From the IMG/VR virus record IMGVR_UViG_3300033075_001605: a stretch of 51,741 bases of DNA. One strand, given 5' to 3'. The notes under the pieces are model-generated. The model did not search any database and was not told where the DNA came from. It saw only the letters and a program-made list of their open reading frames with translations. The DNA comes from a virus. The position numbers and the translations under genes are program-made. Shown in pieces: positions 117 to 48,237 of this stretch (position 1 is its first letter; every line of letters starts with the position of its first letter).

Positions 117-376
117 TCATGAGCGGGCGGCGCCGTAAGATCGGCTCCATGGAACCGTCCAAGGAGATCCGCAATATCCCGCTGCCCAAAGGTGGCACCC
201 TCGAACTCGAGGTGATGCCCGGCTTTTACGAACGCGTCAGGGTTCACTTTGGCCTTGCACCTGACGCACCCGTCGACGACGACCACCTACGTATGTTCGT
301 TTTCGGCGCCCTCAAGACAGCAGTCGACAAGGCCGAAGAGGAGATGCAGCATGGAGGACAACCGATACTTTGTTGA
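113..376 (+). CDS. hypothetical protein
   Basis: 87-aa ORF with a GTG start that overlaps the upstream stop (GTGA). It overlaps the next gene only at its 3' end. Confidence 0.35.
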   Translation: MIMSGRRRKIGSMEPSKEIRNIPLPKGGTLELEVMPGFYERVRVHFGLAPDAPVDDDHLRMFVFGALKTAVDKAEEEMQHGGQPILC

Positions 377-755
377 CATGTACGGCGAAATGCCGTGCAC
401 TGAATGCGGCGAGATGTTCGTGCCGCGTGCAACTACTGACGGAGAAGCACTTGATCTGAGGTGTTCAAGGTGTGAAGCCTCGGACACGAGCATTTCTGAA
501 CACCTGCGTGAGTTCGTTGAACTGTTCCTCGAGCGTAAGATGCGAGAGGCAGACGTTTCAGACGGTTCTCGAGTTCCACACGGGTCATCAAAGCACATCA
601 AGGATCTTGAGGTACGCATCGCCGACCTTTCCAGGTGGCGTGACAAGCAGAGACGTGGTAGTGAAGCAAAGGCAAACTACTCTCGGCTCATTTCTCGCCT
701 AAAGGGTGAACTGTCGAGCGCTAAGCGCCAGGCTGCAAAAGCAAGGAGCAAGTGA
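351..755 (+). CDS. zinc-ribbon protein with C-terminal coiled-coil/basic region
   Basis: CTECGEMFVP...CSRCE is a CxxC...CxxC pair. The internal ATG at 351 (MEDNRYF) is preferred over the ORF-track start at 249, which overlaps the upstream gene. The stop overlaps the GTG start of the next gene. Confidence 0.45.
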   Translation: MEDNRYFVDMYGEMPCTECGEMFVPRATTDGEALDLRCSRCEASDTSISEHLREFVELFLERKMREADVSDGSRVPHGSSKHIKDLEVRIADLSRWRDKQRRGSEAKANYSRLISRLKGELSSAKRQAAKARSK

Positions 756-2905
756 GACACGAAGACCTTCGAAGGCTAGTGACTGAGTGGACGCACCTGA
801 ATGAAGGCGGCGCCGCAGGTCACCTGCAACACCTGTACGACAATCTGGAACTGACGTTTGGAGAGATCAAAGACGTCATCAGCAAGGCGTCTGAAGGTAA
901 GCTTGAGAAGGCATCAGAGAAGCTCGACGGCATGAACCTTGTCTTCACGTTTGACGTTGACGTAGGTCTACTCAGGGTTGCCCGCACGGGTTCAGACATC
1001 AAAAACGGTGGCATGGACGCCGCCGGGTTGGCAAAGAAGTTTTTTGGAAGGGGTAACGTTGAGGTTGCCTTTAACGCAGCGTTCAAGGTCCTAAACGAGG
1101 CGCTGACAACGTTGCCTGAAAACGTCAAGGCGCAGGTGTTTGGTGAAAACGGCAACAGGTGGTACTCGTTAGAGATCATCTATGCCGCTGATCCAAACAC
1201 TATCAGCTACGACTCCAACAACGTGGTTTTCCATGGGTGGCCGATCTTTAACGTCGATAACGACGGTGTTGTCGAACAGGTTGACGACGACGCAGGCGTT
1301 CAGGTTCTTTCGTCTCGCATCGAGCAGATGCAAAAGGCAATCAGCATGAAAGACTGGCGCGTTAGAGGGCCGTCGTTGCTAAACATGAAGCAGATTTCTG
1401 ACGGGACTGTCGCCAAGAAAGCGATCGACCAGATCAACGCTGCCATGTCCCAAGGCAACGTAAACGATGAAAGCACGGTGTTCGATTACTTACGCAGCCT
1501 GATGCAAGATGAGGTCGCAAACCTAAACCTTCCTGACAACGTGTCTTCGATGGTCGTCGAGCGCGCCATCGAAGCTCCAGACGCCCCGAGCGTACCAGAG
1601 ATCAAACGAGTTGCATCGCCAGACACACACCAAGCGATCGCAGCGTTCATCAGGTCGTCTGAGCAGCTCAAGCAGCAGATGATCGCGCCCATCGAAGGCG
1701 CGATACACCAGTTTGCAATCGAGGTGCTACGAGGCCTAAAGTCAACGTTGATAGCAAGGTCTGATGATGAAGTCGCGCGCCTCCGGACGCAGGTCGCCAA
1801 GGCGATCAAGGCGATTGAGGCCTCAGGCAACCAGGCGGCGATGGACGTGTTGCAGAAGGAGATGCAAAGGTTAGGCAACGTTGAAAACATTGGCGCAGCG
1901 ATGGAAGGCGTTGTCTTCTTTTACAAGGGCCAGGCGTACAAGTTTACAGGCGCATTTGCTCCAGCGCATCAGATACTGTCGTTGTTCAAGTATGGTCGCA
2001 AGGGCATCCCAAAGATGGACATGGGTGAGTCGATCACACGGCATGGACCCATCAACGAAGGCGGCTATGCGTTCAATAACGTCAGCTCAATTACGCTTAG
2101 CGACTTTAAAGAAACGTGGCCGTTCATAAAAGACGACTTGGAAACGTTGGGATGCACAAAGGTTGAGTTCATCGGCAGCACAGGCAAGAAACCTGTCATG
2201 GGTGATGTTGACCTTGCAGCAGAGTTTCCTGGCCCACGTGACGAGCTGCTTAGCTATGCACAGGACATGTTTGGCAAGGAAAACGTTGACAAGGTTGGCG
2301 CAACGATCGTCACCATCAGCTACCCGGTGCACGCAGCCGAAGGCGGACACACCGGCACAAGGGTTCAAGTCGACGTCATGCTTGGGAAAACAAGCTACCT
2401 TAAATGGTCGCGCTTCGGCACTTCGTCTGATCCTACGCACGTCGACTACTCTCCTGCAAAAGGTGTCGCAAGAAACGTGTTGATAAATGTGATCACGCGT
2501 TTTTCTGCAGGCCAAGACTTTCCAGGACAGCAGACGGAGCTTGACAGGACACGCTACGCTGTCGACTTTGACAAGGGTTTGTATAAGGTGACGCAGACGA
2601 AAAGGAACAAAAACCCTGGTGGTCCTCAGCTAAAGGATTGGCGCACCGTTGAACGAAAGCTGATCAGCGATGATCCTGACGAAATTGTAAGGATCATTCT
2701 TGGGCCATACGCAAAGGCTTCAAGCCTTCAAAAAGTGGAAGATGTCATGCTCGCCTTGCGCCGTTCAAGACCCAATGATGCCCAGCAAATCCTGCAGGCA
2801 TTTGCGAATGAGCTACGCGTGTTGCTAGAAAAGACGCCCAAGATGCTAGGCAACGATCCACAGGGAGTCATTAGGTATATCGACCAGTTGGTTGCAGGCG
2901 GATAA
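752..2905 (+). CDS. covalent nucleotidyltransferase superfamily protein (RNA/DNA ligase- or capping-enzyme-like), 717 aa
   Basis: The start is GTG. A KxDG motif I (ASEKLDGMNLVF) is present, and the later AAMEGVVFFYKGQAYKFTG resembles motifs IV/V (EGxV...KxxxxK). The N-terminus DLRRLVTEW fits the shared [LIV]xE motif. The ligase-versus-capping assignment is uncertain. Confidence 0.45.
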   Translation: MRHEDLRRLVTEWTHLNEGGAAGHLQHLYDNLELTFGEIKDVISKASEGKLEKASEKLDGMNLVFTFDVDVGLLRVARTGSDIKNGGMDAAGLAKKFFGRGNVEVAFNAAFKVLNEALTTLPENVKAQVFGENGNRWYSLEIIYAADPNTISYDSNNVVFHGWPIFNVDNDGVVEQVDDDAGVQVLSSRIEQMQKAISMKDWRVRGPSLLNMKQISDGTVAKKAIDQINAAMSQGNVNDESTVFDYLRSLMQDEVANLNLPDNVSSMVVERAIEAPDAPSVPEIKRVASPDTHQAIAAFIRSSEQLKQQMIAPIEGAIHQFAIEVLRGLKSTLIARSDDEVARLRTQVAKAIKAIEASGNQAAMDVLQKEMQRLGNVENIGAAMEGVVFFYKGQAYKFTGAFAPAHQILSLFKYGRKGIPKMDMGESITRHGPINEGGYAFNNVSSITLSDFKETWPFIKDDLETLGCTKVEFIGSTGKKPVMGDVDLAAEFPGPRDELLSYAQDMFGKENVDKVGATIVTISYPVHAAEGGHTGTRVQVDVMLGKTSYLKWSRFGTSSDPTHVDYSPAKGVARNVLINVITRFSAGQDFPGQQTELDRTRYAVDFDKGLYKVTQTKRNKNPGGPQLKDWRTVERKLISDDPDEIVRIILGPYAKASSLQKVEDVMLALRRSRPNDAQQILQAFANELRVLLEKTPKMLGNDPQGVIRYIDQLVAGG

Positions 2906-2919
2906 TTACGGATAGCAAA

Positions 2920-4272
2920 ATGGGAACTTTACGAATGAAGCTGCTTGTGCGAGAAGCAATCAGGCAAGCGCTCCTAGAAGACGACGCGGCCCGAGCCGGA
3001 GAGGCTTTGAAAGCTGAAGAAAGGGCAGCCAAGGAAGCCTATGAAAAGGCGGTTGCTGACCTTGCTCGTTGGGACGCGGAGGAGGCAAAACGCGTTGCGC
3101 TTATCAACAGGGCACAAGAGCTAGGCATAAAGCTGGGCGACAACAAGGCGTCAAAAGACCTTAGAAAAGACCCAAAGTATAGCTATGACGCTAAGGTCCT
3201 TCAAGGTAAGCGAGAAACGTTAGTAAAAAAGCTTGAAAAAGCAAAGGATGAATACGGCGCATATGACGCCGCCGCAGTCTCATATAAGCGAGTAGCATCT
3301 GGCGGCGCAAAGACGCCAGCCAACATGCAGATGCCGGACCCTAAAACAAAGGTCTACATGCCGATCAGCGAAATTAAGCCGTTGAGGTGGTATAGCTGGT
3401 CTGATCCACGCTGGGCCAAGGCAGTCAAGAACATTGCCTTTGGAAGCAGCAAAGAAAAGTCTGGGGTTGAACAGGCCGGCACAGGACCGGGAGAAGAACG
3501 CCTCGCCAAGATTTTCGGCGGAAAGGTGCAAGGCGGCGGCGTGTCGTTTGACGTTGTGACGCCTGACGAACGTCGATGGGAGGTCAAGGCGTTGGAGACT
3601 GCCAGCACGTTGATCAGGCCAGGCACAGAGGGCCGCGCAGCCTTTGAAAAGCCTCGGAAGCAGCTGCAACGGATCATGATCCAGATCCGTAACTTTAGCA
3701 TCATAACGAAGAAGCTAGGGCCTGACGTAGCTGACAACCAGGACGACGTTGCGATCCTGAAATACATCTCTGATTTCATTGATGATGAGTTTGAGATGTT
3801 TGCCAAAGGTGAAATCTCGCCTGAACGTTTCAAAGGCCTGCGCGCGGTCCTGAAGGCGTTGTCTTTCTTGAAAAAGAAATGGATGCCAGGAGAAAAGCCG
3901 TCAGATGAACTGATTGTTGGGCTTGCTGACAAGAAAATTCCAGTTGACCAACCTACGTTCATTGACGTAGCAAAGAGGGTTCAGAAGTCGTCTCCTGACG
4001 TTGACGTGCTTAGCAACTTTGAGGAGAAAGAGGTAGCGTGCGCAGCATTGAAGGACCCTGCGTTTGAAAACCCGACAGGGTTTTTCAATGACTGGTTTGA
4101 AACAGTCGATATCAACAGGGTCTTTGAGCAAGTTGACGGCGTCTTCATCGTCAACTCAAAAGGCTTCAACATGGTGCCAAAGCCGCTGTTTCAAAAGGCG
4201 TTTAAGTTTAGCCAGGTTAGCCAGCTCGTTCCAAGGTTTAGGTTCGTCTTCTACGCTTCGTCAGAAGAGTGA
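2920..4272 (+). CDS. hypothetical protein, possible PD-(D/E)xK-type nuclease fold
   Basis: 450-aa ORF. The N-terminus MGTLRMKLLVREAIRQALL carries the shared motif. An internal FDVVTPDERRWEVKALE is D...E-V-K-like. The nuclease assignment is weak. Confidence 0.6.
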   Translation: MGTLRMKLLVREAIRQALLEDDAARAGEALKAEERAAKEAYEKAVADLARWDAEEAKRVALINRAQELGIKLGDNKASKDLRKDPKYSYDAKVLQGKRETLVKKLEKAKDEYGAYDAAAVSYKRVASGGAKTPANMQMPDPKTKVYMPISEIKPLRWYSWSDPRWAKAVKNIAFGSSKEKSGVEQAGTGPGEERLAKIFGGKVQGGGVSFDVVTPDERRWEVKALETASTLIRPGTEGRAAFEKPRKQLQRIMIQIRNFSIITKKLGPDVADNQDDVAILKYISDFIDDEFEMFAKGEISPERFKGLRAVLKALSFLKKKWMPGEKPSDELIVGLADKKIPVDQPTFIDVAKRVQKSSPDVDVLSNFEEKEVACAALKDPAFENPTGFFNDWFETVDINRVFEQVDGVFIVNSKGFNMVPKPLFQKAFKFSQVSQLVPRFRFVFYASSEE

Positions 4273-4277
4273 TGCTG

Positions 4278-4905
4278 TCAAAAAAGACGTTTCTGGCTTA
4301 GGACGCTACGAACGTAGCAACGAAGCAACGCCTCGTTTTTTGCACGGCTAGCCTTTCTAGGCTTAGGCTTTTCCACGGCTGTAGATGTCAAAATACGCCA
4401 TACTTCTTCGCCATCGATCGCTGGTGGCATAAACCTTAGGAACGACTGCTTGTCGCCGTCCTTAAGGTACCTTCGCATCTGCGTACCGCTAACATTTACT
4501 GTTGATGTTCTTTCGACTGGCCTGATGTGGATCCTTCCTTCGTTGAAGGCACGGGGTGCATACTTTTGAAGATAGGTCGCAGGAAAGTTTGCTGCTGCGT
4601 CCTTAACGTCAGAGTATAACCATAGCTCATCTTTCAGCCCAGCGACGTCAGCGTCCCCGATGTACTTGAATGCTTTTCCCACAGGCGATCCGCCAAGCTC
4701 TACGACAACGTTTGCCGGCAGCGTTGGCGTTATGATCCTTTCCCAGATCGTTTTCATCGCCTGCCCGCTGACCTCTTCCCTGTCTGACGTAGAAACATAA
4801 AGGAGCACCTCGTCACATTCCCTGGCAGCAAGGCGCACTAACCCATCATGGCCAGCGTGATACGGCTTTCCGCTTATCGGTACAATTCCAATTTTTGCCA
4901 CTAGT
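4278..4905 (-). CDS. HxGH-type nucleotidyltransferase (cytidylyltransferase-like; NMN/NaMN adenylyltransferase-like)
   Basis: IGIVPISGKPYHAGHDGLV contains the (H/T)xGH signature, and VSGTQMRRYL is an ISxTxxR-like C-terminal motif. The likely GTG start (VAKIGIV) has AAGGA upstream. The ORF-track ATG at 4961 would overlap the divergent NUDIX gene. Confidence 0.6.
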
Positions 4906-4939
4906 GTCAATCCTTGTGTGGGTGTAGTAGTAAATAAGG

Positions 4940-5410
4940 ATGAGCAAGAAGAACAAGGCACGCAAGCAGTCTATGTCTTGCGGCGCAGTTGCATGGAGGA
5001 TCAACGATGGCATCATCGAAGTCTTGTTGATCAAGCAGTTTGCGCATAAGGACAGCTGGGGAATCCCTAAGGGACACATCAACAAGGGAGAAACGTTGGA
5101 AGAATGCGCAATCCGCGAGGTCAGGGAAGAGACAGGGATCAACGTCTCCTTGGGCTCACGACTGCCAGACGCAAAGTCTTTTGTTAAGCACGAAGACAAG
5201 ACTGTTGTTTCATACTTGGCAAAGCCAGTCGGCAACCAAACCCCTTCGTCTGGTGATCCTGACTGCGAAGTGGCAGACGCAAGGTGGTTTTCTGTTGATT
5301 CTTTGCCAACGATACACCTGTACCAACGACCTTTGTTGGAGGAAGCAGTTAGGCTCATCAAGAAACTCGCTGCTGATGAAGCAGGGTCGTCAGACGAAGC
5401 GACCGAATGA
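4940..5410 (+). CDS. NUDIX hydrolase
   Basis: Nudix box GHINKGETLEECAIREVREETGI, which is Gx5Ex7REuxEExGu. Confidence 0.8.
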   Translation: MSKKNKARKQSMSCGAVAWRINDGIIEVLLIKQFAHKDSWGIPKGHINKGETLEECAIREVREETGINVSLGSRLPDAKSFVKHEDKTVVSYLAKPVGNQTPSSGDPDCEVADARWFSVDSLPTIHLYQRPLLEEAVRLIKKLAADEAGSSDEATE

Positions 5411-5634
5411 ACGACCAGCTTCTTGACGCGATTGTGTTTGTTTTTAGCTACGCTTCAAACGTTGACGACTGGATCACTATCAAAAAGGAGCTTCTAAAGG
5501 CGCTCCCGCCAGACGCTAGAACGTCCTTTTCGATACGTGATCCTAAGACCAAACGTCAGGTGCCAAATGAGCTTGAAAAGCTGATCGCTGCAAGGTGGGA
5601 AGAGATGACTGGGCGTCAGGTCCTATTTAGGTAG
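5407..5634 (+). CDS. hypothetical protein
   Basis: 75-aa ORF whose ATG overlaps the upstream stop (ATGA). Confidence 0.5.
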   Translation: MNDQLLDAIVFVFSYASNVDDWITIKKELLKALPPDARTSFSIRDPKTKRQVPNELEKLIAARWEEMTGRQVLFR

Positions 5635-5635
5635 C

Positions 5636-6649
5636 ATGACACTTAAGCTGCTGCGAGAATACATCCAAGCTGTTCTGGTTGAAGACATGGGCGGCGACTA
5701 CGGCGGGCTTGGGTTTGGTGACGCCATGGGCGACATGCCGTATGGGATGCATTTCGCCAGCCAAGACCAGCTTTACAAGATCTTCGTCAAGCCATTCGCC
5801 GACGTTGTCGGCGTTGCTGCTGGGAAAACAAAGGAGCTTTCGCAACGCGGCATCACAGCCCTTAACGTTGCGTTTGAAGCGATAGCAACAACGCTTATTC
5901 CGATCCTAAAAGACAGCTATGGCGAGATCTTTCAGAAAGAAAAGCAGCAGATCGACAAGATAAGGTCGGAGTACTCAGACGTCTATCAAGCCACCTGGGA
6001 TGCATTCAACGAGATGGATGTGGTCGTCGCAGCCTTTGCCTATCGCCCAGATCTCTTTTTGACTGCCAAGTTTGCTAAGCACGCGCCTAAAGCAGCAGCA
6101 AAGCTCTTAAGCGTTTTGTCGGGAGGTTCGTTGGACAACGTCCTTCATGGCTTGCTTAAAAGCAGCGGGAAGCGACACGTTGACCATTCAGAGGGTCCCG
6201 GCATGCCAATTGAATCTTTGATACGTGAGGAAAAGGACAACGAACCGTCAAAGCTTGAAAAGCTCATCACCAACAAAAAAATCAAGCAAGTGTTGGCAGG
6301 AAGCCCAAAGGTTCAGCAGCTTGCGAAGGTTGGCTCAGAGCTTGTCCAAGGAACGTTAAAGGACGTTTTTTCACAGGCCAACAACGTCATGAACGCAAAG
6401 TCGTTACAGGACCTGCAGTCTAAGCTTGGGAAAAAGCTGCCGGGCATTGACAAGCTTTCTCAGGTGCCTCAACGGGAACGTGAACAGGCTGAACAAAAAC
6501 TTTTGGTTGGCGTGCAGAGGGGAATGAAGGAGTTTTACGTAAAGCAGCTGGAAGGTCAGGTAAAAGCCGCCATCGAGGCAGGCGTGCCGAAGGATCACCC
6601 GTTTGTGGCTGATTACGTGAGCGTTATCTCAAAGATCAAGGGGCTGTGA
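5636..6649 (+). CDS. hypothetical protein (alpha-helical)
   Basis: 337-aa ORF. The N-terminus MTLKLLREYIQAVL carries the shared [LIV]xE motif. Confidence 0.65.
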   Translation: MTLKLLREYIQAVLVEDMGGDYGGLGFGDAMGDMPYGMHFASQDQLYKIFVKPFADVVGVAAGKTKELSQRGITALNVAFEAIATTLIPILKDSYGEIFQKEKQQIDKIRSEYSDVYQATWDAFNEMDVVVAAFAYRPDLFLTAKFAKHAPKAAAKLLSVLSGGSLDNVLHGLLKSSGKRHVDHSEGPGMPIESLIREEKDNEPSKLEKLITNKKIKQVLAGSPKVQQLAKVGSELVQGTLKDVFSQANNVMNAKSLQDLQSKLGKKLPGIDKLSQVPQREREQAEQKLLVGVQRGMKEFYVKQLEGQVKAAIEAGVPKDHPFVADYVSVISKIKGL

Positions 6650-7214
6650 TGTCAGCGATGACCGGGTTGCTGGTCGCTGCGTGCCAAAAGATGCCGTGGA
6701 GGCCGTGTTCAGCTAGCCTTGCGACTAACCTGTCCTGAACCACCTGCGTGTCTTCAGACAACCGTCGCAGCGCAGGGTGCCATTCGATGTATAGCTTGCT
6801 GATCAGCTTGATCGAGCCTTCGTTGATCATCTTTTCGAGCACCTCGTACTCCGAGCCTTCGATGTCTAACTTCAACACAACGTAATCGTCTGGTGTGAAA
6901 CGTTCACGTACCCACCTGCTGAAGTCGATGCACGGCACGTCTACGTGGATCTGCTTGTTGACGATGTATTTGTTTTCCCTGTGTAGCGAGGAGCTAATCG
7001 TCCACATCCCAGCGTTGTAAAACGTGATGGTGCCGTCCTCAATCCAGATGGCTTCATTGTGAAACTCAATGTCTGTCAGGTCCTTGAAGTCATCATGCAA
7101 CGAAACGTTAGGCTCAAACGAGATGATTGAGAACTCTTCCGCTTTTGGGTACTGGCTACGAAACAGCCTGACAGATTCGCCCTTGTGCCCGCCGCCGTCG
7201 ATGAAGTATTTCAC
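6636..7214 (-). CDS. FkbM-family SAM-dependent methyltransferase
   Basis: YFIDGGGHKGES...SFEPN is a glycine-rich SAM motif followed by FEP. LKLDIEGSEYEVL is typical of the FkbM domain. Confidence 0.7.
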   Translation of the reverse strand: MKYFIDGGGHKGESVRLFRSQYPKAEEFSIISFEPNVSLHDDFKDLTDIEFHNEAIWIEDGTITFYNAGMWTISSSLHRENKYIVNKQIHVDVPCIDFSRWVRERFTPDDYVVLKLDIEGSEYEVLEKMINEGSIKLISKLYIEWHPALRRLSEDTQVVQDRLVARLAEHGLHGIFWHAATSNPVIADITAP

Positions 7215-7255
7215 TGCTTAGGTATGCATGAAACAAGACAAGGCAAGGTGTTAAG

Positions 7256-7549
7256 ATGCTGTTCATGGGAAAACGAGCACCTAAGCAATATAACGTTGCG
7301 CATCTTCAGCCTGATGAGATCAATGCCCTTCGCGCCTTAGTCAAGGAGTTCATCACAAAGGTGTCTGCCGTTGATGCAGAGATCGAGCTTCTGAAGAACG
7401 ATAGGAAAGAAATCATCGAAGAGTATCAGGAAAAGCTTGACATGAAGACCCTGACAGCTGCGCTGAAGGTCATCAAGATCCAGCAAGGCGTGCAGCATCG
7501 TGACACATACGACCTGTTCATAGAAGCCTTGGAAGATCCCACGATGTGA
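7256..7549 (+). CDS. hypothetical coiled-coil protein
   Basis: 97-aa ORF with heptad-like K/E/L composition. Confidence 0.5.
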
Positions 7550-7562
7550 TGTAAGGAAACAA

Positions 7563-8828
7563 ATGATTACATCACGTTGGAAAGGCATCAAGCGTCCTTA
7601 CACAAAGAACGACGTAAGCAAGCTACGAGGGCGAACAAGCGTTGAACATACGCTGGCGCGCTTGGGCGCAAACAAGCTGTGGAGCCTGATGACCGAGCAG
7701 CCATACCTGGCTGCCTTAGGCGCGCAGACTGGTAACCAAGCTGTGCAAATGGTCAAGGCTGGCTTACGCTCCATCTACGTCAGCGGGTGGCAGGTCGCGG
7801 CAGACGCTAACCTTTCGCAACAAACCTATCCTGACCAAAGCCTTTATCCAGCCAACAGCGTTCCAACGCTTGTTCAACGGATCAACCAGTCGCTCTTAAG
7901 AGGCGAGCAGATCGAACACCTGGAAGGAAAGGACGATCGTGATTGGATGGTTCCGATCGTTGCAGACGCCGAGGCCGGCTTCGGCGGGCCGCTGAACGCG
8001 TTCGAGCTGATGAAGGGCATGATCGAGGCAGGCGCCGCGGGCGTCCACTTCGAGGACCAGCTTTCAAGCGAGAAGAAGTGCGGCCACCTCGGCGGCAAGG
8101 TGCTCGTGCCGTCGTCGCAGTTCATCCGGACGCTCGTCGCAGCCCGGTTAGCCGCAGACGTGATGGACGTACCGACGGTGATCGTTGCTAGGACAGATGC
8201 CTTAAGCGCCAAGCTAATCACCAGCGACATTGACCAAACAGACGCACAGTTCATCAGCAAGAAAGAAGGCAGAACGTTAGAAGGCTTTCATTACGTTGTT
8301 GGTGATCCGCTTCAACACGCTACACACCGTGCGTTGTCCTTTGCACCGTACGCTGATGTGCTATGGTTTGAGACGTCTGAGCCTAACCTTGCTGAAGCGA
8401 TGAGGTTTGCGGAAGACGTTCACAAACGCTACCCAGGTAAGCTGCTGGCGTACAACTGCTCGCCGAGCTTCAACTGGAAGAAAAAGCTTAGCCATGACGA
8501 CATTGCGTCCTTTCAGCGTGACCTAGGTGAGCTCGGGTATGCGTTTCAGTTTGTCACGCTGGCCGGTTTTCATGCAAATTCGTTGGCGCTGTTTCAGCTA
8601 GCAAACGACTATGCATCGCGTGGGATGTCGGCCTACGCTGACCTTCAGCAGAGAGAGTTTGCAGAAGAGAAAAACGGGTACACCGCGACGCGCCACCAAC
8701 GAGAGGTAGGCACCGAGTACTTCTCTGAGGTTTCTAGGGTAATCAGCTCTAACCAGTCGTCAACGCTCCCGATGGAGGCATCAACTGAACGAGAGCAGTT
8801 TGACGACACGACTCCTAAACATACCTAA
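7563..8828 (+). CDS. aceA: isocitrate lyase
   Basis: The catalytic KKCGH motif ([14 protein letters not shown]) is present. The order SGWQ..., DADAGFGG and VARTDA matches ICL over about 420 aa. AAGGAA lies 6 nt upstream of the ATG. Confidence 0.9.
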
Positions 8829-8876
8829 GCTAGGTTTGTTCTGAACACAGTGACAGTCTTGAAGTAGGATCGTTGC

Positions 8877-9269
8877 ATGAGCGAACAAGAAAAACCGCGA
8901 AAGACTTATACGGTTCGTTTGACAAGGGCGGAGCTCGTGCATCTACGAGATCTTTTTTCCGTTTTGCTTCCGTTGGAGATGAAGGAAACCCTTAGCCATC
9001 GTTTGGCACACCTTCAGGACCGTGTCATGGTGGAGGCTAAGCTATGGCAAAAGGTGGTGGCAGCGTGCCAGGAAGCCAACCTTCCGCTTGACGATGACGC
9101 CCCTGACTTTGTTGTCACTGCGTCCGCTGCGCCTCCGATCGGCGTGTTTGAGCTTTCGTCTGACGCTGAACAGCAGGACAACCTCCTTGAAAATGCTTTC
9201 GTGGCAGAGGAGGATGAAGAGGATGATGAAGAGGAAGGGTCAGACGACCTTGAGGAGGACGAGGAATGA
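8877..9269 (+). CDS. hypothetical protein with strongly acidic C-terminal tail
   Basis: The ORF ends ...EEDEEDDEEEGSDDLEEDEE. Its stop overlaps the next start (ATGA). Confidence 0.55.
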   Translation: MSEQEKPRKTYTVRLTRAELVHLRDLFSVLLPLEMKETLSHRLAHLQDRVMVEAKLWQKVVAACQEANLPLDDDAPDFVVTASAAPPIGVFELSSDAEQQDNLLENAFVAEEDEEDDEEEGSDDLEEDEE

Positions 9270-9781
9270 GCTACACAGTAGGTCAGGTCATCTACGTTGT
9301 CCTTAACAAGGAAGCGCGCGTCTACCCGATGCAAATTGTTGAAGAGATCACCAAGAAAACGCTTGAAGGCGAGATGGTTACATACATGGTCCGCGGCGGC
9401 GCGGAGCCGGCAACGGTCGTATCGATATCACAGGTCAACGGAGAGATCTTCGACTCAATCGACGAGGCATCGGAGGCGCTAAAGGCCCGTGCAATCGCAA
9501 GCATCAACAAGCTCATCGCCGCCGCGCGCCAGAAAGCTGAGGAATGGTATCCTAACGCAGTCGCTGTTAACAAAAGCGTCGACAGCGCTTTTATGGACGT
9601 CCCAACGCCTTCGCTGCCTAAAGCCAAGGCCAAGAAGAAGTTTGATCCAGTAGCCGAGCTGCAAAATGACCTTCAAAAAGAGGCAAACTCTCCTGCGTTA
9701 GAAGAGGGTTCTGTCATGATGCTTCCAGACGGAACAAAGGTAAAGGTAGCGTCAATCAAGCTTCCTGACTCGGTGCAGTAG
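9266..9781 (+). CDS. hypothetical protein (N-terminal small beta-barrel-like segment)
   Basis: 171-aa ORF translationally coupled to the upstream gene. Confidence 0.55.
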   Translation: MSYTVGQVIYVVLNKEARVYPMQIVEEITKKTLEGEMVTYMVRGGAEPATVVSISQVNGEIFDSIDEASEALKARAIASINKLIAAARQKAEEWYPNAVAVNKSVDSAFMDVPTPSLPKAKAKKKFDPVAELQNDLQKEANSPALEEGSVMMLPDGTKVKVASIKLPDSVQ

Positions 9782-9798
9782 GCTTCAATAGTTATGAC

Positions 9799-10053
9799 AT
9801 GCGTATCAGGCTAGGTCAGCTTCGAAAGCTAATCAACGAAGCAGGCAAAAGGATCGGTGCGTCCGCAGCGTATCTCAAAAAAGAGAAGGTTCGCGAGGAG
9901 ATGCAGCGGTTCATCATTTCACAGATCTCCGCAGGGAATGTCTCAGACCAGGCGTCGTTGGATGCCTTTGTCAAGGACATCGAGCTGTCGATGACTGCGT
10001 TGAGGTCTGTTCCGTTCGATGTCTGGAAAAAGCTGGCTGGAAACAAAGTGTAA
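9799..10053 (+). CDS. hypothetical small protein
   Basis: 84-aa ORF. The N-terminus MRIRLGQLRKLINEA carries the shared [LIV]xE motif. Confidence 0.45.
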   Translation: MRIRLGQLRKLINEAGKRIGASAAYLKKEKVREEMQRFIISQISAGNVSDQASLDAFVKDIELSMTALRSVPFDVWKKLAGNKV

Positions 10054-10075
10054 GCCACCAAAAAGCTGGTATACC

Positions 10076-10861
10076 ATGCTTGCCATGGCATCGAACGATT
10101 CGCTTGCTGCTCGCATGAAGGAGTATGAACAGGCGGCCAGGTCAACGTTGACGAACCGTCTCCCGGTGATCATTCGTGTTGACGGCAAGGCATTCAGCAG
10201 CTACACGCGCGGGTGCGAACGACCCTTTGACGTTTCGTTTGGCGATGTCATGCTTGATGTTGCTCATGAGCTCATCAACGGCGTCCAGAACGCTCAGGTT
10301 GCATACGTTCAATCGGACGAGGTGTCCGTGTTGCTTCACGGCTACAAAAGGCTCAATTCCCAGCCTTGGTTCAAAAACCAGGTGCAGAAGATGTGTTCTG
10401 TGGCGGCTAGCATCGCTTCAGCTACCTTCACGGCAAACAGCTGGAAGATTTGGGCGCCAAAGTCTCCTGCAACCAACCCCGACCTTGCCAAGGCTCTTGC
10501 GGTTCACGGCGCATTCGTAGACAACGTAAGGCCAGCTGTGTTTGATGCGCGGGTCTTCACGGTGCCAGAGCGTGACGTTTGCAACTATTTCCTATGGCGT
10601 CAAAAGGACGCAATGCGCAACTCTGTTCAGATGCTCGCAAGGTCCTTGTACTCTCACAAGGAGTGCCAGGGGAAGAACAGAAACGCCTTACGCGAGATGT
10701 GCCTTCAAAAGGGAAAGAGCTGGGATGACGTCGATGCTCGTTGGCAGCGCGGCGCATGCGTCTACCGTTCAGCTGAGAAGACGATCGTTGACACAAACAT
10801 TCCGATCTTCTCAAACGACAGGGGCTACATTGAGCGTCACCTCAGCGTCACAGAAGGCTAA
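10076..10861 (+). CDS. Thg1-like protein (tRNA-His guanylyltransferase family, 3'-5' nucleotidyltransferase)
   Basis: VIIRVDGKAFSSY, VAYVQSDEVSVLL and WFKNQVQKMCSVAASIASATF are collinear with the Thg1 signatures VVRLDGRNFHRF, IAYGQSDEYSFVF and WFKRRASKFMTHVASQFAS. The ATG at 10076 (or 10085) is preferred over 10019, which overlaps the upstream ORF. Confidence 0.8.
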   Translation: MLAMASNDSLAARMKEYEQAARSTLTNRLPVIIRVDGKAFSSYTRGCERPFDVSFGDVMLDVAHELINGVQNAQVAYVQSDEVSVLLHGYKRLNSQPWFKNQVQKMCSVAASIASATFTANSWKIWAPKSPATNPDLAKALAVHGAFVDNVRPAVFDARVFTVPERDVCNYFLWRQKDAMRNSVQMLARSLYSHKECQGKNRNALREMCLQKGKSWDDVDARWQRGACVYRSAEKTIVDTNIPIFSNDRGYIERHLSVTEG

Positions 10862-14833: not shown

Positions 14834-15847
14834 ATGGTTCGACACATCAAGTGGACTGAGATTGAAAGTTTTTACCACGTTCGTAAGCACGTGGCTGCTT
14901 ACCCGATCCTGACCTGCGGCAACGACGTTGTCACCTATCGCGCCAAGGTGAAGCTTCACGGCTCGTGTGGGTGCGTCGCTGTCTCGTCTGACGGCACGGT
15001 GACCGCGATGTCGCGGTCTGTCGTCCTTGTCAACGGCTCGGACAACGCAGGCTTTGCGAAGTGGGTCGCTGACCGTTCTGCGCAATTTGCGAAGCTCGCT
15101 CCTCAAAAGGGAACGCTTGCTGTCTTTGGCGAGTGGGTCGGCCCAGGCGTCCAAAAGGGCGCCGCAGTCACAGAGATCAAGGAGAGGTCGTTCGTTGTCT
15201 TCGCTGCCCGGGTGCTAGACGAACTCGACAACGACGTTGACTTCCTTGTCGAGCCGTTTGTGCTGACGGGCCTCGTCCAATACATCGACGGCTGCCACGT
15301 GCTGCCGTGGTTCAACTCTGCCGAAGAGTTCAATGTTGATTGGGTGTCTTCCCCGGAAGGGTTGCAGCCTGTCATCGACCGCATCAACACCCACGTTGAC
15401 CAGGTGGAGGCGTGTGACCCTTGGGTCCTTGATGTCTTCAACGTCAAGGGAACCGGCGAAGGCCTGGTGTTTTACCCAACGAGCCAGGCACACCGAGGCT
15501 ACAGGAGCTTTAGCAACCTTTGCTTCAAGGCAAAAGGCGAGAAGCACAAGGTCGTCAGCAAGACCAAGCCGGCGCAGGCTGACCCAACTGTCGCTGCGAG
15601 CTCCGCGGCGTTTGCGGAGATGGTCATGACACCAGCGCGGCTAGAGCAAGGGGTACGGGCCGTCAACGACGGCGACCTGGTGTTCAACCCCAAGAACATC
15701 GGCCAGTTTCTGGCGTGGATTAGCAAGGACATCATCAAGGAGACGAAAGCTGAGATGGACGCGGCAGGCCTCGATCAAAAGGTCGCCGTGCAGGCGTGCA
15801 GCACCCGTGCCAGGGCCTGGTACCTCGAGGAGATGAAGAAGCTGTGA
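14834..15847 (+). CDS. ATP-dependent RNA ligase, Rnl2-like
   Basis: Motif I is KLHGS. Motif III, AVFGEWVGPGVQKG, matches FGEFAGPGIQKN of T4 Rnl2. Motif IV is GEGLVFY. Motif V is FKAKGEKHK. Confidence 0.85.
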   Translation: MVRHIKWTEIESFYHVRKHVAAYPILTCGNDVVTYRAKVKLHGSCGCVAVSSDGTVTAMSRSVVLVNGSDNAGFAKWVADRSAQFAKLAPQKGTLAVFGEWVGPGVQKGAAVTEIKERSFVVFAARVLDELDNDVDFLVEPFVLTGLVQYIDGCHVLPWFNSAEEFNVDWVSSPEGLQPVIDRINTHVDQVEACDPWVLDVFNVKGTGEGLVFYPTSQAHRGYRSFSNLCFKAKGEKHKVVSKTKPAQADPTVAASSAAFAEMVMTPARLEQGVRAVNDGDLVFNPKNIGQFLAWISKDIIKETKAEMDAAGLDQKVAVQACSTRARAWYLEEMKKL

Positions 15848-16851: not shown

Positions 16852-17712
16852 ATGAAGATTCTTTGCATCGACGGGATGAACTTTCTGCACCGAGCCCGTG
16901 CAGGTTTTACCCTCGGCGACTACCCAGTTGTCTTCAACTTCTTTCGTAACCTTCGTGCGTTGGTTGAGCTTCATCGGCCTAGCCGGGTCTACTTCACCCT
17001 TGAAGGTCACCCAAAACAACGGCATGATCTAATGCCTGAGTACAAGGCAAACCGCCGCATCGGTCCCGACGAAGACGGCACAATGACGCCAGAGATGGTC
17101 AAAAAGGCCGCAGAGATGGAGAGCTTTTTTCGCCAGGCTGGCGTCGCCGTAGCCTTGCTTTCTGAGCGGTTTCCTGTGTCGGTCGTTCGCCACGCAGACT
17201 ACGAAGCAGACGACGTCATCTACAACCTGATCCTTCGCAGCTCGACCGCTGTTCCCTGGGTTGTCGTTTCCACGGACACTGACTTCACCCAGCTGTTGGG
17301 TGAGTTTGAGCACGTCAGCGTGTACAACCCTGTCACAAAGGGATACGTTGAGGCGCCTCCGTTTGACTATGTCACCTGGAAGGCTCTTCGAGGCGACGGC
17401 TCTGACAACATCCCCGGGCTTCCGAAGATCAGCGACAAGGTTGCAGAGGAGATCGTCAACGATCCTGACCGCTTGCGTGAGCTCTTCAAGGACAAAGCTC
17501 TCGCTGAGCAGTTCAACCGCAACTACCAGCTGATCAAGTTTCATACGTGGTCTGACGAGGACGCGATGCAGATGACTTGTTCAGAGCCTGTCCGCGACTG
17601 GGACGCAGTCGCAAGGCAGCTTGAGGAATGGCAGTTCAAAAGCTTCCTAAAGGAAGCAACGTGGCAGAAGTTCAAGGCTACGTTTGAGCCGCTGTTCGGC
17701 GATACGCCATAG
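16852..17712 (+). CDS. 5'-3' exonuclease / flap endonuclease (PIN-like, T4 RNase H/T5 D15 type)
   Basis: MKILCIDGMNFLHR, YEADDVIY and RGDGSDNIPGLPKISDKVAEE form the H3TH and acidic-cluster motifs. Confidence 0.8.
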   Translation: MKILCIDGMNFLHRARAGFTLGDYPVVFNFFRNLRALVELHRPSRVYFTLEGHPKQRHDLMPEYKANRRIGPDEDGTMTPEMVKKAAEMESFFRQAGVAVALLSERFPVSVVRHADYEADDVIYNLILRSSTAVPWVVVSTDTDFTQLLGEFEHVSVYNPVTKGYVEAPPFDYVTWKALRGDGSDNIPGLPKISDKVAEEIVNDPDRLRELFKDKALAEQFNRNYQLIKFHTWSDEDAMQMTCSEPVRDWDAVARQLEEWQFKSFLKEATWQKFKATFEPLFGDTP

Positions 17713-17767
17713 AATACTAGCTAAACAGAGCACGCGTAGTTGCTACTTACTCGCGAGGTGACAACGC

Positions 17768-18286
17768 ATGTCTAACGTAAAACGACTGTTGGGTTTTGCT
17801 TGGGCGTCTCCCTTGACGCTTGCTGGCCTGGTCTACGTGGGAGTCTTCTCGGCCTTTGGCTGGTACGACAAGATCGGCGTGTTTGGTGACGCTTGGGTGT
17901 GGCGTTTGAACGGCGCCCGGGCCCCTGAGTGGCTGATGAAGCTGTGGACAAAGTGGGGCGGTCACACCATCGGCAACGTGGTGGTGATGAAAGGCTCCCC
18001 AAAGAAAGACACTGTCACGCTTCGCCATGAACAGGAACACGTTCGCCAGTGCATGGCGTTAGGAATCTTTCAGCCGATCCTTTACGGGCTCGCGATGCTG
18101 GCGATCAAGCTTGGGTGCAAGCTGTCCGACCCATACTTCTCGAACCCGTTTGAGATCGAGGCACGTAGGGTTGCGGGCCAAACAGTCGACATCGAAGGGT
18201 TCTTGGCTAAGGTGACTGCAGCCAAGAACAAGGCAACAGAAAAGGCAAGCATCCGTCGGGCCAAGGCGAAAAATGGTCAGCGTTGA
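17768..18286 (+). CDS. membrane protein with HExxH motif (holin-like or membrane zinc-peptidase-like)
   Basis: Two predicted TM helices (LLGFAWASPLTLAGLVYVGVFSAF and IFQPILYGLAMLAIKLG) flank HEQEHVRQ. The C-terminal tail is basic. Confidence 0.45.
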   Translation: MSNVKRLLGFAWASPLTLAGLVYVGVFSAFGWYDKIGVFGDAWVWRLNGARAPEWLMKLWTKWGGHTIGNVVVMKGSPKKDTVTLRHEQEHVRQCMALGIFQPILYGLAMLAIKLGCKLSDPYFSNPFEIEARRVAGQTVDIEGFLAKVTAAKNKATEKASIRRAKAKNGQR

Positions 18287-19397: not shown

Positions 19398-19690
19398 GCG
19401 CACTCCTTAATGAATACATCAAATGTATCATCGTTGAGTTAAAGCGCGATGAAAACATGATCGACCTCCTGAAGACAACGCGCCTGAGGAAGCAATTCCC
19501 AAACGTGGAAAAGATCGCTGATGAATGGGCCAAGAAGCAGAAGGGTTTCAAGCAGGATCAGCTGCAATCAGCCCGGACGTTCGTCAACAGCAGGTTTCCA
19601 AAGCTGTATGCACAATCGCATGAGGATTTTGCTGCCACCAAACGAGCGTTGTTCGATGCGTTGAGCAGCCGGTTTAAGGTTGAGAAATGA
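19394..19690 (+). CDS. hypothetical small protein
   Basis: 98-aa ORF. The N-terminus MSALLNEYIKCIIVEL carries the shared [LIV]xE motif. It overlaps its neighbours by 4 nt. Confidence 0.5.
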   Translation: MSALLNEYIKCIIVELKRDENMIDLLKTTRLRKQFPNVEKIADEWAKKQKGFKQDQLQSARTFVNSRFPKLYAQSHEDFAATKRALFDALSSRFKVEK

Positions 19691-20214
19691 ATCAAAAGCT
19701 TTTACGAACATTTATTCGAGAGGTCATCAGCGATGGGTTCGGTAACAAGAACCTTGGAAAGGATGCGCCGGGCGGGAACCTTAGGTACGATGTTCAGGTC
19801 ACCGCGCGCGGCACCAACATCCTTGACGATGAAGCCGAAGAGGCATCTAAGCCTAGGCCTCGTGCAGCATGCGTGTTAATCATCGCTGACGACGGCAAGG
19901 TGTTGGCTGTCTCTAGGCGGAACGACCCAACCGCGTTTGGGCTTCCTGGGGGCAAGGTTGACCAGGGCGAGCAGCCAGCTGACGCAGCAGCTCGAGAGCT
20001 TAAGGAGGAAACCGGCCTAGACGTTGCTGGGCTTCGTCCCGTCTTTGTTCACAAGGAAGATGACGGCTACGAGACCACGACGTTTATCGGAAGCGTCAGC
20101 GGGAAAATTGACACCAAGGAAGAGGGCGTCATCCGTTGGGTCGACCGTGAGGTGCTGTTCAACGGGCCGTTTGGAAGGTACAACCGCAAGCTGTTTGCTA
20201 CGTTGGGCCTTTGA
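19687..20214 (+). CDS. NUDIX hydrolase (second copy)
   Basis: Nudix box GGKVDQGEQPADAAARELKEETGL. The N-terminus MNQKLLRTFIREVI carries the shared motif. Confidence 0.75.
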   Translation: MNQKLLRTFIREVISDGFGNKNLGKDAPGGNLRYDVQVTARGTNILDDEAEEASKPRPRAACVLIIADDGKVLAVSRRNDPTAFGLPGGKVDQGEQPADAAARELKEETGLDVAGLRPVFVHKEDDGYETTTFIGSVSGKIDTKEEGVIRWVDREVLFNGPFGRYNRKLFATLGL

Positions 20215-20966: not shown

Positions 20967-21461
20967 GTGATGAACATCTTTGTGCTCGACAAGGATCCCG
21001 TCCAGGCTGCACGGGACATGTGCAACAAACACGTCTGCAAGATGGTCATTGAATCTGCGCAGCTGCTTTGCACTGCCATGCACCTAAACGGAACATCGAT
21101 AAGCCAGCTTCCATATAGGCCGACACACGCCAGGCACCCGTCATCAGTGTGGACGGCGGCTAGCCCAGACAACACAGCGTGGCTGTGGCTTCACGCGTTA
21201 GAGCTGCGTGATGAATACGAGCGACGTTACCGCAAGCGACACAAGACATCGCTAGCGTTGGCTGCGTTGCAACAGCTGGTTCCTGTCGGCGACTGGCGCT
21301 CCCACACGCCGTTTGCTCAGGCTATGCCTGATGAGTGGAAAAACCCAGACGCTGTGCTTGCGTATCGTTGCTACTACATTGCAGAAAAGTCTACGTTTGC
21401 GCGTTGGGCGCCTAGGGCTTCACCACCAGCTTGGTGGCCTTTCAAGGAGGAAGAACGATGA
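20967..21461 (+). CDS. hypothetical protein
   Basis: 164-aa ORF whose stop overlaps the next start (ATGA). Confidence 0.55.
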   Translation: MMNIFVLDKDPVQAARDMCNKHVCKMVIESAQLLCTAMHLNGTSISQLPYRPTHARHPSSVWTAASPDNTAWLWLHALELRDEYERRYRKRHKTSLALAALQQLVPVGDWRSHTPFAQAMPDEWKNPDAVLAYRCYYIAEKSTFARWAPRASPPAWWPFKEEER

Positions 21462-22537
21462 TTCGCTTTGAACCTGGGTTTGTCGCAGACCTAAAACGCG
21501 ATCTAATGAACGTTGATGAAGACACAAAGGTTCGTCTTGCCAGGGTCGGTTCGTTGACAGAGGACGAGCTGCTGCGGCTGGTCACAAACCCACCGAACCA
21601 TGATGTTTTTGACGTTGATCACCCAGCGATCAACGACGTGGTTCCATACGATGACCTAACCTCTTGGCAGCTGGGCGTTGAAGCTGTCGATAGGGGTGAA
21701 GTAGCGTTTGTTGTTCTTGCGGGGGGAACCGAAACGCATTTAGGGTTGCCTAAGGCGTTAACAAAGCTTCCCAGGCTGGGAATTTCGTTGTTGGCGATCA
21801 AGCTAACGCAAGCTAGCTTTATGACGAAGGACAGCCATCACAAAACTCCCGTCTGGATCATGACGTCACCTGCATCGTTCGCGCAGGTAGGTGAACACAT
21901 AGCTAGCATCAACTCACCCGCATCTGGCGTCATTTTTGAACAGTTCCAATCATATCGCCTGTTGCCGAACAATTCGCTTAGCTGGATGCCTGACGGTCAA
22001 CCCAACCTTTATCCTACGGGGCACGGAGACGTTGGGCCAGCTTTGGTGGAGTCTGGCATCCTTGAACAGCACGCGAACGTGAAGCACGTGGTCATCGTTA
22101 ACTGTGACAATGTGTTGGCTTCGCTGGATCCTCACGTCATCGGCCATCACATCAAATCAGGGAATGATGTTACGTGTGAAATCGTTAAACGACAAAAAGG
22201 TGACGCTGGGGGCGTGCTCTGCTGGGCAAACAACAAGCTTCAGGCGATCGAATGCTTCAGGCTACCCACGAATTTTGTTGATGAAGCGGTCTATCAAAAC
22301 ACCAACACATTCATCGTCAACGTAGCAGCGTTAAAACGAAGCATGGCATGGCGTTGGCACAGGCTTCGCAAGCTCGTCGACAACACCGTCTTTGTCCAGC
22401 ATGAACGCCTGCTTCAGCAGCTGACTGAAGAACACAGCACCGGGTACGTTCTCGTGGATAGGGAACGACGTTACCTGCCTGTCAAGACGAAAGCAGGTTT
22501 GGTCGCCGCCGACGACATGCTCAGCTGGGAGAAATGA
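21458..22537 (+). CDS. UDPGP-family nucleotidyltransferase (UTP:sugar-1-phosphate uridylyltransferase-like)
   Basis: VLAGGTETHLGLPKAL is the GGxGTxxGxxxPK motif. YPTGHGDV is the PxGHGD signature. IVNCDNVLA is the NxDN motif. GGAGGAAGAACG precedes the ATG at 21458. Confidence 0.7.
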   Translation: MIRFEPGFVADLKRDLMNVDEDTKVRLARVGSLTEDELLRLVTNPPNHDVFDVDHPAINDVVPYDDLTSWQLGVEAVDRGEVAFVVLAGGTETHLGLPKALTKLPRLGISLLAIKLTQASFMTKDSHHKTPVWIMTSPASFAQVGEHIASINSPASGVIFEQFQSYRLLPNNSLSWMPDGQPNLYPTGHGDVGPALVESGILEQHANVKHVVIVNCDNVLASLDPHVIGHHIKSGNDVTCEIVKRQKGDAGGVLCWANNKLQAIECFRLPTNFVDEAVYQNTNTFIVNVAALKRSMAWRWHRLRKLVDNTVFVQHERLLQQLTEEHSTGYVLVDRERRYLPVKTKAGLVAADDMLSWEK

Positions 22538-25295: not shown

Positions 25296-26324
25296 ATGAG
25301 CCACTTTACTGTCACTGTCAAGCTTTCGGCTGAACGCTTGATGAAGCACAAGAATGATGTTGATAGCGCACTCAACGAGATCCTTGCTCCGTACAATGAA
25401 GCAACGAGCGACCCAAGCCTAACTGAGTTCGTTGACGTTACGGACGAATACAGCGTCAAGTATGCCTCTGAGGCGATTGAGCAGGTCAGGCTAGACGATG
25501 GCACGTTTGTTTGGCCTTATGACGAGCGATTCCGTGTCAAGGATACGTTTGGAACTGGACGCAACACTCACAAGGCGCCAGAAGACAAGCTCGTCAACCG
25601 CTCCGCAGAAGAGGTGTATGGATCTTTCGAAAACTACATGAAGGAGTACTGCGGTTACAAGAAGAACAGCAAAGGCCGTTACGGTTACAGTCACAACCCC
25701 AACGCAAAGTGGGACTGGTGGGTGATCGGAGGGCGATGGACAGGGCACTTCCCTCTTAAGAAGTCTTCTCTTAGGATCCTTGGCGAAAGCGGTTCGTTCA
25801 ACAACCTGCCTGCCGAAGGACACGGTGATCTCGTAAAGGTAGGCGATATCGATCTTGATGCAGTGGCTCAGCAGGCGAAAGAGCAGGCAAAGAACTTCTT
25901 TCTTGAATACCAGGAGCTGCTCCAGGGTAAGACGTTCTTGGCGTTTGATGGCCCGCGCAGCACTGCGCTGCGTTTGGGGCTCATCAAGGTCGTAGAAAGC
26001 GCAGCAGACGCTGGACTTAATGAGGTTGCTGTTTCATGGGCAAGCTTCGTTAGCCCTGACAACGAGCGCGCGACATGGACCGACCTATGCAAGGTGATCT
26101 CACTCGACGAGTTTCTTGATCGGTACACCGATTGCTTCAACCCAATCGCAACGTATGCCGTTTTGGATGATGAGGGTTGGCATGCACCCGGAGAGATGGG
26201 GTGGTTTGGGCTGTCAACTGACAGCAGCGATGACTACGTTGCTTTTAAGAAAGCTTTCATGCAGCGCGTTATCAAGTCAGCAAAGCCTGACGACACGCTT
26301 GTCTGTGTTGACTGTCACATCTAA
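25296..26324 (+). CDS. hypothetical protein
   Basis: 342-aa ORF. Confidence 0.65.
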   Translation: MSHFTVTVKLSAERLMKHKNDVDSALNEILAPYNEATSDPSLTEFVDVTDEYSVKYASEAIEQVRLDDGTFVWPYDERFRVKDTFGTGRNTHKAPEDKLVNRSAEEVYGSFENYMKEYCGYKKNSKGRYGYSHNPNAKWDWWVIGGRWTGHFPLKKSSLRILGESGSFNNLPAEGHGDLVKVGDIDLDAVAQQAKEQAKNFFLEYQELLQGKTFLAFDGPRSTALRLGLIKVVESAADAGLNEVAVSWASFVSPDNERATWTDLCKVISLDEFLDRYTDCFNPIATYAVLDDEGWHAPGEMGWFGLSTDSSDDYVAFKKAFMQRVIKSAKPDDTLVCVDCHI

Positions 26325-48235: not shown

Positions 48236-48237
48236 GT

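Follow-up and report, generated by a model that had tools for sequence, protein, structure and literature searches.

A predicted full-length isocitrate lyase carried as accessory cargo at a fixed site in a lineage of jumbo/huge phages

The virus record IMGVR_UViG_3300033075_001605 of IMG/VR, a stretch of 51,741 nucleotides that is referred to throughout as the window, contains a gene for the glyoxylate shunt enzyme isocitrate lyase (ICL, aceA-type), which an initial annotation made from the DNA letters had singled out as metabolic cargo of a phage. Judged from its sequence, the gene encodes a full-length, catalytically intact ICL of bacterial type, and comparison with related contigs places it among the accessory genes of a jumbo/huge phage lineage, as cargo in a fixed slot enclosed by two conserved genes. 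As a whole, the observations are probably best explained by an intact ICL in a cargo slot that ancestrally held an aceBA cassette (malate synthase followed by ICL), from which aceB has since been lost, with the shunt being completed by a malate synthase of the host. Window genes are named by w and their start position (w752 is the gene starting at 752), and the loci around ICL and w752 homologs with which the window proteins were compared by tblastn carry L-numbers. Coordinates are listed in Table 1.

The assignment to ICL is supported by several family models. The product scored 684 bits against the NCBIfam equivalog NF011645 'isocitrate lyase' (cut-off 562), with model positions 21-428 of 430 covered, and 536 bits against TIGR01346 (cut-off 275.9), and it matched the Pfam family ICL (PF00463) with E = 6.6e-101 and 338.8 bits (cut-off 26). 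Models for the methylisocitrate lyase PrpB gave only 93 and 75 bits against cut-offs of about 354. The nearest solved structures are the bacterial ICLs 7cmx (E = 1.8e-179) and 6lrp, which align end to end; identity to solved ICLs is about 60% or higher. In a homology search the cluster representative P0001 was 100% identical to the window protein, although a look-up of the exact product gave no record, and a 41-mer from the KKCGH region had no exact match in IMG/VR. The gene had also been credited with a good Shine-Dalgarno (SD) site. A motif of this kind does precede the start codon, as it does in 17 of the 74 window genes (background 10%), but we would rate it as reasonable, not strong, and a scan for sigma-70 promoters and terminators around the gene gave nothing better than shuffled sequence.

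To assess the active site, the window ICL was aligned with 120 homologs, Escherichia coli AceA and Mycobacterium tuberculosis ICL1, the sequence and numbering of the latter having been checked against 5dql_A (100% identical). In the M. tuberculosis enzyme the established Mg2+ site consists of D108, D153, E155 and E182 and the substrate ligands are Y89, S91, G92, W93, H180, R228, E285, N313, S315, S317 and T347; C191, which lies together with H193 in the loop K-K-C-G-H, is the general-base cysteine, and the triad W283/F345/T347 separates ICL from methylisocitrate lyase. It can be seen from the alignment that 22 of these 22 catalytic, Mg2+ and glyoxylate/succinate residues are identical in the window ICL, that its KKCGH loop (residues 171-175) aligns with M. 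tuberculosis 189-193, and that W268, F330 and T332 provide an ICL-type pocket at the positions of the triad. The initial annotation was therefore right to describe a complete ICL with the KKCGH loop, and the loss of the catalytic Cys or His by which it would have recognised a pseudo-enzyme was not found. Among columns invariant in the reference sequences the window ICL deviates at 3 of 124 (Y260F, D388S and A403P), and among those conserved to at least 95% it deviates at 10 of 200, mostly in the C-terminal lid, where the motif S-T-E-x-x-Q-F is kept as STEREQF.

Set beside bacterial AceA/ICL1 (EC 4.1.3.1; 7cmx, 6lrp, M. tuberculosis ICL1 5dql/1f61 and E. coli 1igw), the window protein is collinear over its full length at about 57-69% identity and has the KKCGH loop, the Mg2+ and glyoxylate/succinate ligands and the STExxQF lid in common with them, but unlike them it is phage-encoded, has a minimal N-terminus, an unusual lid and an 8-residue tail, and has no aceB, aceK or regulator gene adjoining it. 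The N-terminus begins 4 residues ahead of the RWxGI motif; we considered whether this might be a phage-specific trait and rejected the idea, since the same is seen in 33 of 109 bacterial references. Short tails after QF are found in several other phage ICLs as well as in that of the window, while bacterial ICLs end at QF or QFH. At two of the related loci (L017 9992-11374 and L036 7229-8761) the ICL open reading frame (ORF) extends 45-95 codons beyond STExxQF as a low-complexity tail, which in L036 overlaps the next gene in a different frame.

The position of the gene was assessed from the block of backbone genes that the window has in common with the related loci, in the order w249, w752, w2920, w4278, NUDIX, w5407, w5636, w7256, [slot], w8877, w9266, w9799. 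Homologs of the left border gene w7256 (58-77% identical) lie directly upstream of the slot, and those of the right border gene w8877 (46-71% identical) directly downstream of it, in L017, L036, L038/L049, L042 and L045-L048; both genes are shared with at least 10 contigs from IMG/VR or metagenomes, which reach 309 kb in length. The ORFs beside the ICL had been described as phage-like orphans, and indeed no Pfam family was assigned to them, but they are conserved in related viral contigs. The FkbM-type methyltransferase of the window has no homolog in any syntenic locus, where the homologs of w5636 and w7256 are adjacent or nearly so. Because it stands beside the slot in the window only, the neighbourhood of the slot is variable.

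The slot itself was found in four states. L017/L018 carry an intact malate synthase gene followed by that for ICL, and the window, L042 and L036 carry aceA only. L038/L049 retain a remnant in which the first ~108 malate synthase codons are fused to ICL codons ~203-413 (L038 9740-10630, corresponding to L049 ~16950-17830), leaving two non-functional fragments; the junction is an 8-nt microhomology, GTGCCGAC, that is common to the aceB 'SGAD' and the aceA 'VPT' codons. As the ICL part of the L038 remnant is still 92% identical to the L042 ICL and keeps 59 of 59 invariant residues, the deletion must be recent. In L045-L048 the slot is empty or holds an unrelated small ORF, with no cassette remnant detected there by tblastn at E ≤ 10, and in L008/L009/L011 the border genes adjoin each other, the ICL being located at another site. 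In the window the left border gene ends just 13 nt before the ICL start, and aceB is therefore cleanly absent. The finding of empty slots led us to reject the possibility that ICL belongs to the core genes of the lineage.

Neighbour-joining trees were constructed for ICL (n = 151) and for the concatenated backbone proteins. The window ICL falls in a clade with L002/L004, L017, L036 and P0002-P0008 (82% bootstrap), whose members are all phage-like wherever the genomic context was inspected. The backbone tree groups (window,(L049,L042)) with 73% and 100% support and (L036,L017) with 97%, and the two trees are congruent. Two sister pairs differ in slot state, since L049 with its aceB remnant pairs with L042 (aceA only) and L017 (aceBA) pairs with L036 (aceA only). 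The most parsimonious reading would be that the ancestral slot held an aceBA cassette from which aceB was lost at least three times, once in the line of the window, and from which the whole cassette was lost several times.

Selection and composition were examined for the same set of genes. For pairs of phage ICLs dN/dS was 0.03-0.11 (an unsaturated pair, with dS 0.24, gave ω 0.11), and for the flanking backbone genes it was 0.10-0.22; the ICL follows the backbone down to about 54% backbone identity. We conclude from these ratios that the ICL is evidently under strong purifying selection in phage genomes, and from the congruent trees that it has been inherited with the backbone. The gene has a GC content of 0.551 and a third-position GC (GC3) of 0.637, against 0.520±0.036 and 0.602±0.062 for the window genes, and a codon-usage cosine of 0.948 with the window, and it is therefore compositionally at home. 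An intact enzyme, viral synteny and purifying selection together uphold the proposal that a phage genome carries this gene as metabolic cargo.

The phylogeny had also been suggested as a means of identifying the donor, and in this respect it was less informative. Phage ICLs are nested within the bacterial ICL radiation, and the tree places the phage clade beside a group including Polyangia/Myxococcota sequences without meaningful support. The best cellular ICLs are 64-69% identical to that of the window, and this flat plateau takes in at least 10 phyla (Bacillota, Myxococcota, Acidobacteriota, Chloroflexota, Actinomycetota, Gemmatimonadota, Planctomycetota, Verrucomicrobiota, Proteobacteria and others), and singles out no donor lineage; phage relatives reach 71%. 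The transfer of ICL into the phage lineage is old.

Further ICL homologs were encountered outside the syntenic loci. Those of L002/L004 (contigs from JGI 3300006899 and Logan SRR27686863) belong to a second ORFan-rich, phage-like lineage; the ICL is of the same clade and 69% identical to that of the window, and no other shared gene was detected, which suggests either gene transfer from phage to phage or extreme divergence of the backbone. ICL homologs also occur on contigs of giant-virus metagenome-assembled genomes (L022 and L033/L040, IMG/VR GVMAG). Finally, the IMG/VR contigs L012-L014, L023-L032 and L037 encode ICLs with full bacterial N-termini, which in the ICL tree lie beside Bacillales ICLs (L012-L014) or deep and apart from the phage clade (L023-L032/L037). 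Some of these contigs are probably host flanks or misclassified bacterial DNA, and raw counts of 'viral ICL' will consequently overestimate carriage by phages.

No malate synthase was found in the window, either by tblastn with bacterial, phage and E. coli queries (three queries, no match at E ≤ 10) or in a Pfam/PHROGs scan of all five window ORFs of at least 400 residues, in agreement with what had been noted initially; tblastn with E. coli AceK likewise gave no match in the window at E ≤ 1. Apart from L017/L018, intact aceB was seen next to aceA in the viral contigs L015, L016, L019 and L020. The presence of aceB beside aceA in relatives supports use in the shunt, and the repeated dispensability of aceB supports host redundancy or a stand-alone ICL alike. 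In the mechanism that we infer, the phage ICL would be produced during infection free of host control of the aceBAK/IclR type and would act at the isocitrate dehydrogenase branch point, where it would split isocitrate into glyoxylate and succinate. A host malate synthase (AceB or GlcB) would then condense the glyoxylate with acetyl-CoA, so that the two CO2-releasing steps of the tricarboxylic acid (TCA) cycle would be bypassed and C2 and fatty-acid carbon would be kept for C4 intermediates, biosynthesis and progeny.

A potential explanation that would make the ICL a host gene is that the region is bacterial chromosome, host DNA flanking a prophage or a chimera produced by mis-assembly, and it was with such a finding that the initial annotation would have been withdrawn. 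Capsid, portal and terminase genes were not found in the window or in the accessible flanks of relatives (four PHROG batches of window ORFs and one batch of the relatives' upstream flanks), and tblastn with the terminase, capsid, protease and sheath-neighbour proteins of the Microcystis jumbo phage Mel-JY01 found no virion or packaging gene in the window or any locus, the only hint of virion genes being small ORFs with Pfam Gp23 matches near the Major Vault Protein (MVP)-like gene of the 309-kb relative. The last ~3.7 kb of the window (~48000-51741) is also of foreign composition, with a GC content of 0.63-0.67 and a codon-usage cosine of 0.71-0.74 compared with about 0.93 elsewhere; it has long overlapping ORFs in several frames, no Pfam/PHROG match, no phage DNA match in a blastn 'distant' search and one weak tblastx match only, to the 309-kb relative. 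For this end a recently acquired island, non-coding or repetitive DNA and a chimera of the assembly are all conceivable, but it lies 40 kb away from the ICL, whose own composition fits the window. Since no virion or packaging gene was found, the viral assignment depends on gene content, on synteny with IMG/VR contigs and on homologs restricted to jumbo phages. Both flanks of the ICL are syntenic with viral contigs of 200-309 kb: the window shares 10-16 collinear genes with IMG/VR contigs of 204, 211, 216 and 309 kb and with several shorter ones, and on the 309-kb contig the distance from the backbone block to the MVP-like gene is ~37 kb, as in the window. Isolate-phage homologs of w752 (717 residues) were found only in Mel-JY01, the LR7565xx huge phages and Lak megaphages, and those of w25296 (25296-26324) are nearly all in jumbo phages, the best ones being in genomes of 355-378 kb. 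Mel-JY01 was considered as a close relative and rejected, as it has one gene only in common with the window, and 25 kb of the window, searched by megablast, matched no GenBank phage. PHROG families occur on either side of the ICL, and the matches in the window (a Thg1-like enzyme, RNA ligase, exonuclease, two NUDIX proteins, GroEL, an endonuclease V-like protein and phrog_10079, together with the FkbM methyltransferase, HisRS-like protein, AAA ATPase, metallophosphatase, M24 peptidase and UDPGP) look like typical large-phage cargo. Genes are packed as in prokaryotes (median intergenic gap 14 nt, with overlaps of 1 or 4 nt at ten junctions), a search of the window for tRNA genes found none, and no match to a housekeeping family was obtained among the larger window ORFs scanned against PHROG/Pfam. 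The bacterial context of ICL is different, with malate synthase, topoisomerase and LeuRS beside the gene (P0009; L005), and the ICLs of named genomes are at most 69% identical, below the value reached by phage relatives. We conclude that the region is, by gene content and synteny, viral and not bacterial chromosome, and regard a chromosomal origin as extremely unlikely.

The role of the enzyme allows more than one reading. Glyoxylate or succinate production might itself benefit the phage, with the ICL acting alone and not as half of a shunt: succinate might feed respiration, glyoxylate might be converted to glycine for purines, or NADH and oxidative stress might be lowered. At least three losses of aceB, with aceA kept under strong constraint, fit this possibility, as do the 76 of 98 ICL-bearing huge phages without malate synthase counted in a recent preprint (bioRxiv 10.1101/2025.02.27.640493). 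The adjacent intact aceB of L017/L018, L015, L016, L019 and L020 nevertheless points to shunt use, host malate synthases are common, so that redundancy explains the loss of aceB equally well, and the window ORFs that were scanned included no glyoxylate aminotransferase or comparable partner; we therefore hold a stand-alone role to be rather unlikely, if the most serious of the alternatives. That the enzyme is mainly a methylisocitrate lyase of the 2-methylcitrate cycle, acting on propionate and odd-chain carbon, appears very improbable. The two enzymes are of the same superfamily, weak matches to the PrpB models were obtained, and M. tuberculosis ICL1, with the same active-site residues, carries out both the isocitrate and the methylisocitrate reactions, but the PrpB equivalog score lies far below its cut-off, the discriminating residues are ICL-type and relatives pair the gene with malate synthase and not with prpC or prpD. 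It is similarly hard to credit that the gene does nothing for the phage and is only a decaying or neutral passenger. The empty slots of L045-L048, the fresh deletion in L038/L049 and the long branch and lid substitutions of the window copy would be expected of a passenger, yet its catalytic residues are all intact, dN/dS is tighter than in the flanking genes, the composition is fully ameliorated and the gene has been co-inherited with the backbone over the range given above.

Some of the observations count against the explanation that we prefer, namely an intact cargo ICL, descended from an aceBA cassette, that works in the shunt with a host malate synthase. That host enzyme is an assumption. 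The cassette is missing in several close relatives, so that any benefit must be conditional. The window ICL is the longest branch within its clade and its lid carries GTEYFS for GTGYFD and LPMEA for LALxx, followed by the 8-residue tail after QF. The trees are neighbour-joining only, and the larger, 21-member clade that joins the window group with other huge-phage ICLs has just 39% support. The slot pattern could also reflect exchange of aceBA cassettes by recombination between related phages. To these must be added the virion and packaging genes that were looked for without success.

Carriage of ICL by phages is of a kind already known, and the description of the gene as not a usual phage cargo overstated its novelty. 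The pair aceAB was reported from Pacific viromes in 2013 (PMC4053976), and an aceBA operon in 2017 from the 179-kb T4-like environmental viral genome TARA_ERS478052_N000008 (PMC5332604), a large myovirus-like genome with phage-borne glyoxylate-shunt genes, as in the window lineage; its aceB-aceA order is the same as in L017/L018, and the window has aceA only. In the 2025 preprint on huge phages (bioRxiv 10.1101/2025.02.27.640493), ICL is reported in 98 phages, of which no more than 22 have a malate synthase, and this gene then adjoins that for ICL or lies one gene off; those phages are of at least 200 kb, the relatives of the window are of 204-309 kb with the same states, and a slot-level history of gain and loss is not described in the accessible text. 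Among GenBank phages the only genuine ICL carrier found was Phage C48C1 (OQ984149, Kyanoviridae, 156 kb), where CDS0055, annotated 'hypothetical protein', is 52% identical to the window ICL and has KKCGH; no malate synthase was found within 10 kb either side of it. The C48C1 ICL branches near M. tuberculosis ICL1, apart from the window, which indicates a separate acquisition, and no other gene is common to C48C1 and the window. What is new here is the polymorphism of the slot and the direction from aceBA to aceA.

The remaining genes of the window include an MVP-like ORF with a GC3 of 0.77 (window mean 0.60). More than 100 clusters of full-length homologs with 50-89% identity were found, all of them metagenomic, on contigs of up to 436 kb that include the 309-kb relative. 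Its conservation exceeds that of the backbone genes, a hint that it may be an abundant structural or shell-like protein of the huge-phage lineage; viral MVPs have so far been reported from two gut phages only (bioRxiv 10.1101/2023.11.10.566534). The Thg1-like enzyme, RNA ligase and HisRS-like protein may constitute a module for tRNA-His maturation or tRNA repair, and relatives carry a tRNA nucleotidyltransferase (L045 463-1335). The NMNAT-like and NUDIX genes may likewise form a module for NAD+ salvage or reconstitution; an NAD-synthetase-like ORF lies upstream in L045.

Table 1. Features of the window discussed in the text, with their positions and the evidence for each.
Feature	Position	Strand	Evidence or remark
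ICL (aceA-type, short prokaryotic ICL1 form), 421 aa	7563..8828	+	ATG start; NCBIfam, Pfam and PDB matches
Catalytic-loop codons K171-K172-C173-G174-H175 (M. tuberculosis ICL1 K189-H193)	8073..8087	+	Sequence reading and alignment to M. tuberculosis ICL1
SD-like AAGGA	7553..7557	+	5 nt upstream of ICL ATG
Left slot border, conserved backbone gene, 97 aa	7256..7549	+	phrog_14706 (function unknown)
Right slot border, conserved backbone gene, 130 aa	8877..9269	+	No Pfam family
FkbM-type methyltransferase	6636..7214	-	Pfam Methyltransf_21, 3.5e-09; phrog_8156
Syntenic backbone block	249..10053	+	tblastn against loci; concatenated backbone tree
Cytidylyltransferase/NMNAT-like protein beside NUDIX hydrolase	4278-5410	- (NMNAT-like)	Pfam Citrate_ly_lig, 4e-05; weak PHROG NMN adenylyltransferase match
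Thg1-like tRNA-His guanylyltransferase	10019-10861		phrog_4717, 8e-77
RNA ligase	14834-15847		phrog_548, 2e-40
Second NUDIX hydrolase	19687-20214
T4 endonuclease-V-like protein	20967-21461
Eukaryote-type UDP-sugar pyrophosphorylase	21431-22537		UDPGP, 4e-27
HisRS-like protein, 201 aa	24341-24946		phrog_4806, 3e-48
GroEL	28399-30036		phrog_5725, 7.5e-144
ORF homologous to IF-1/eIF-1A-family gene of L081	31645-31962
M24 peptidase	34946-35680		Pfam Peptidase_M24, 5e-46
MVP-like ORF, 894 aa	38389-41073	-	Pfam MVP_shoulder, 1.2e-29; Vault_3; Band_7

The finding extends current understanding and does not overturn it, the phenomenon having been documented before. A phage ICL would be a virus-controlled enzyme at the isocitrate branch point, which determines whether carbon is lost as CO2 or retained. 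Provided that the enzyme is active, cells infected in nutrient-poor habitats fed by acetate or lipids would save more carbon for virions, and estimates of virocell carbon flux would be affected; if instead the ICL acts alone, this would be a distinct way in which viruses rewire the TCA cycle. One slot with four states (aceBA, aceA only, fresh deletion and empty) amounts to a natural experiment that asks which of the two shunt enzymes a phage needs, and close pairs such as L042 and L049 offer a test of its effect on fitness.

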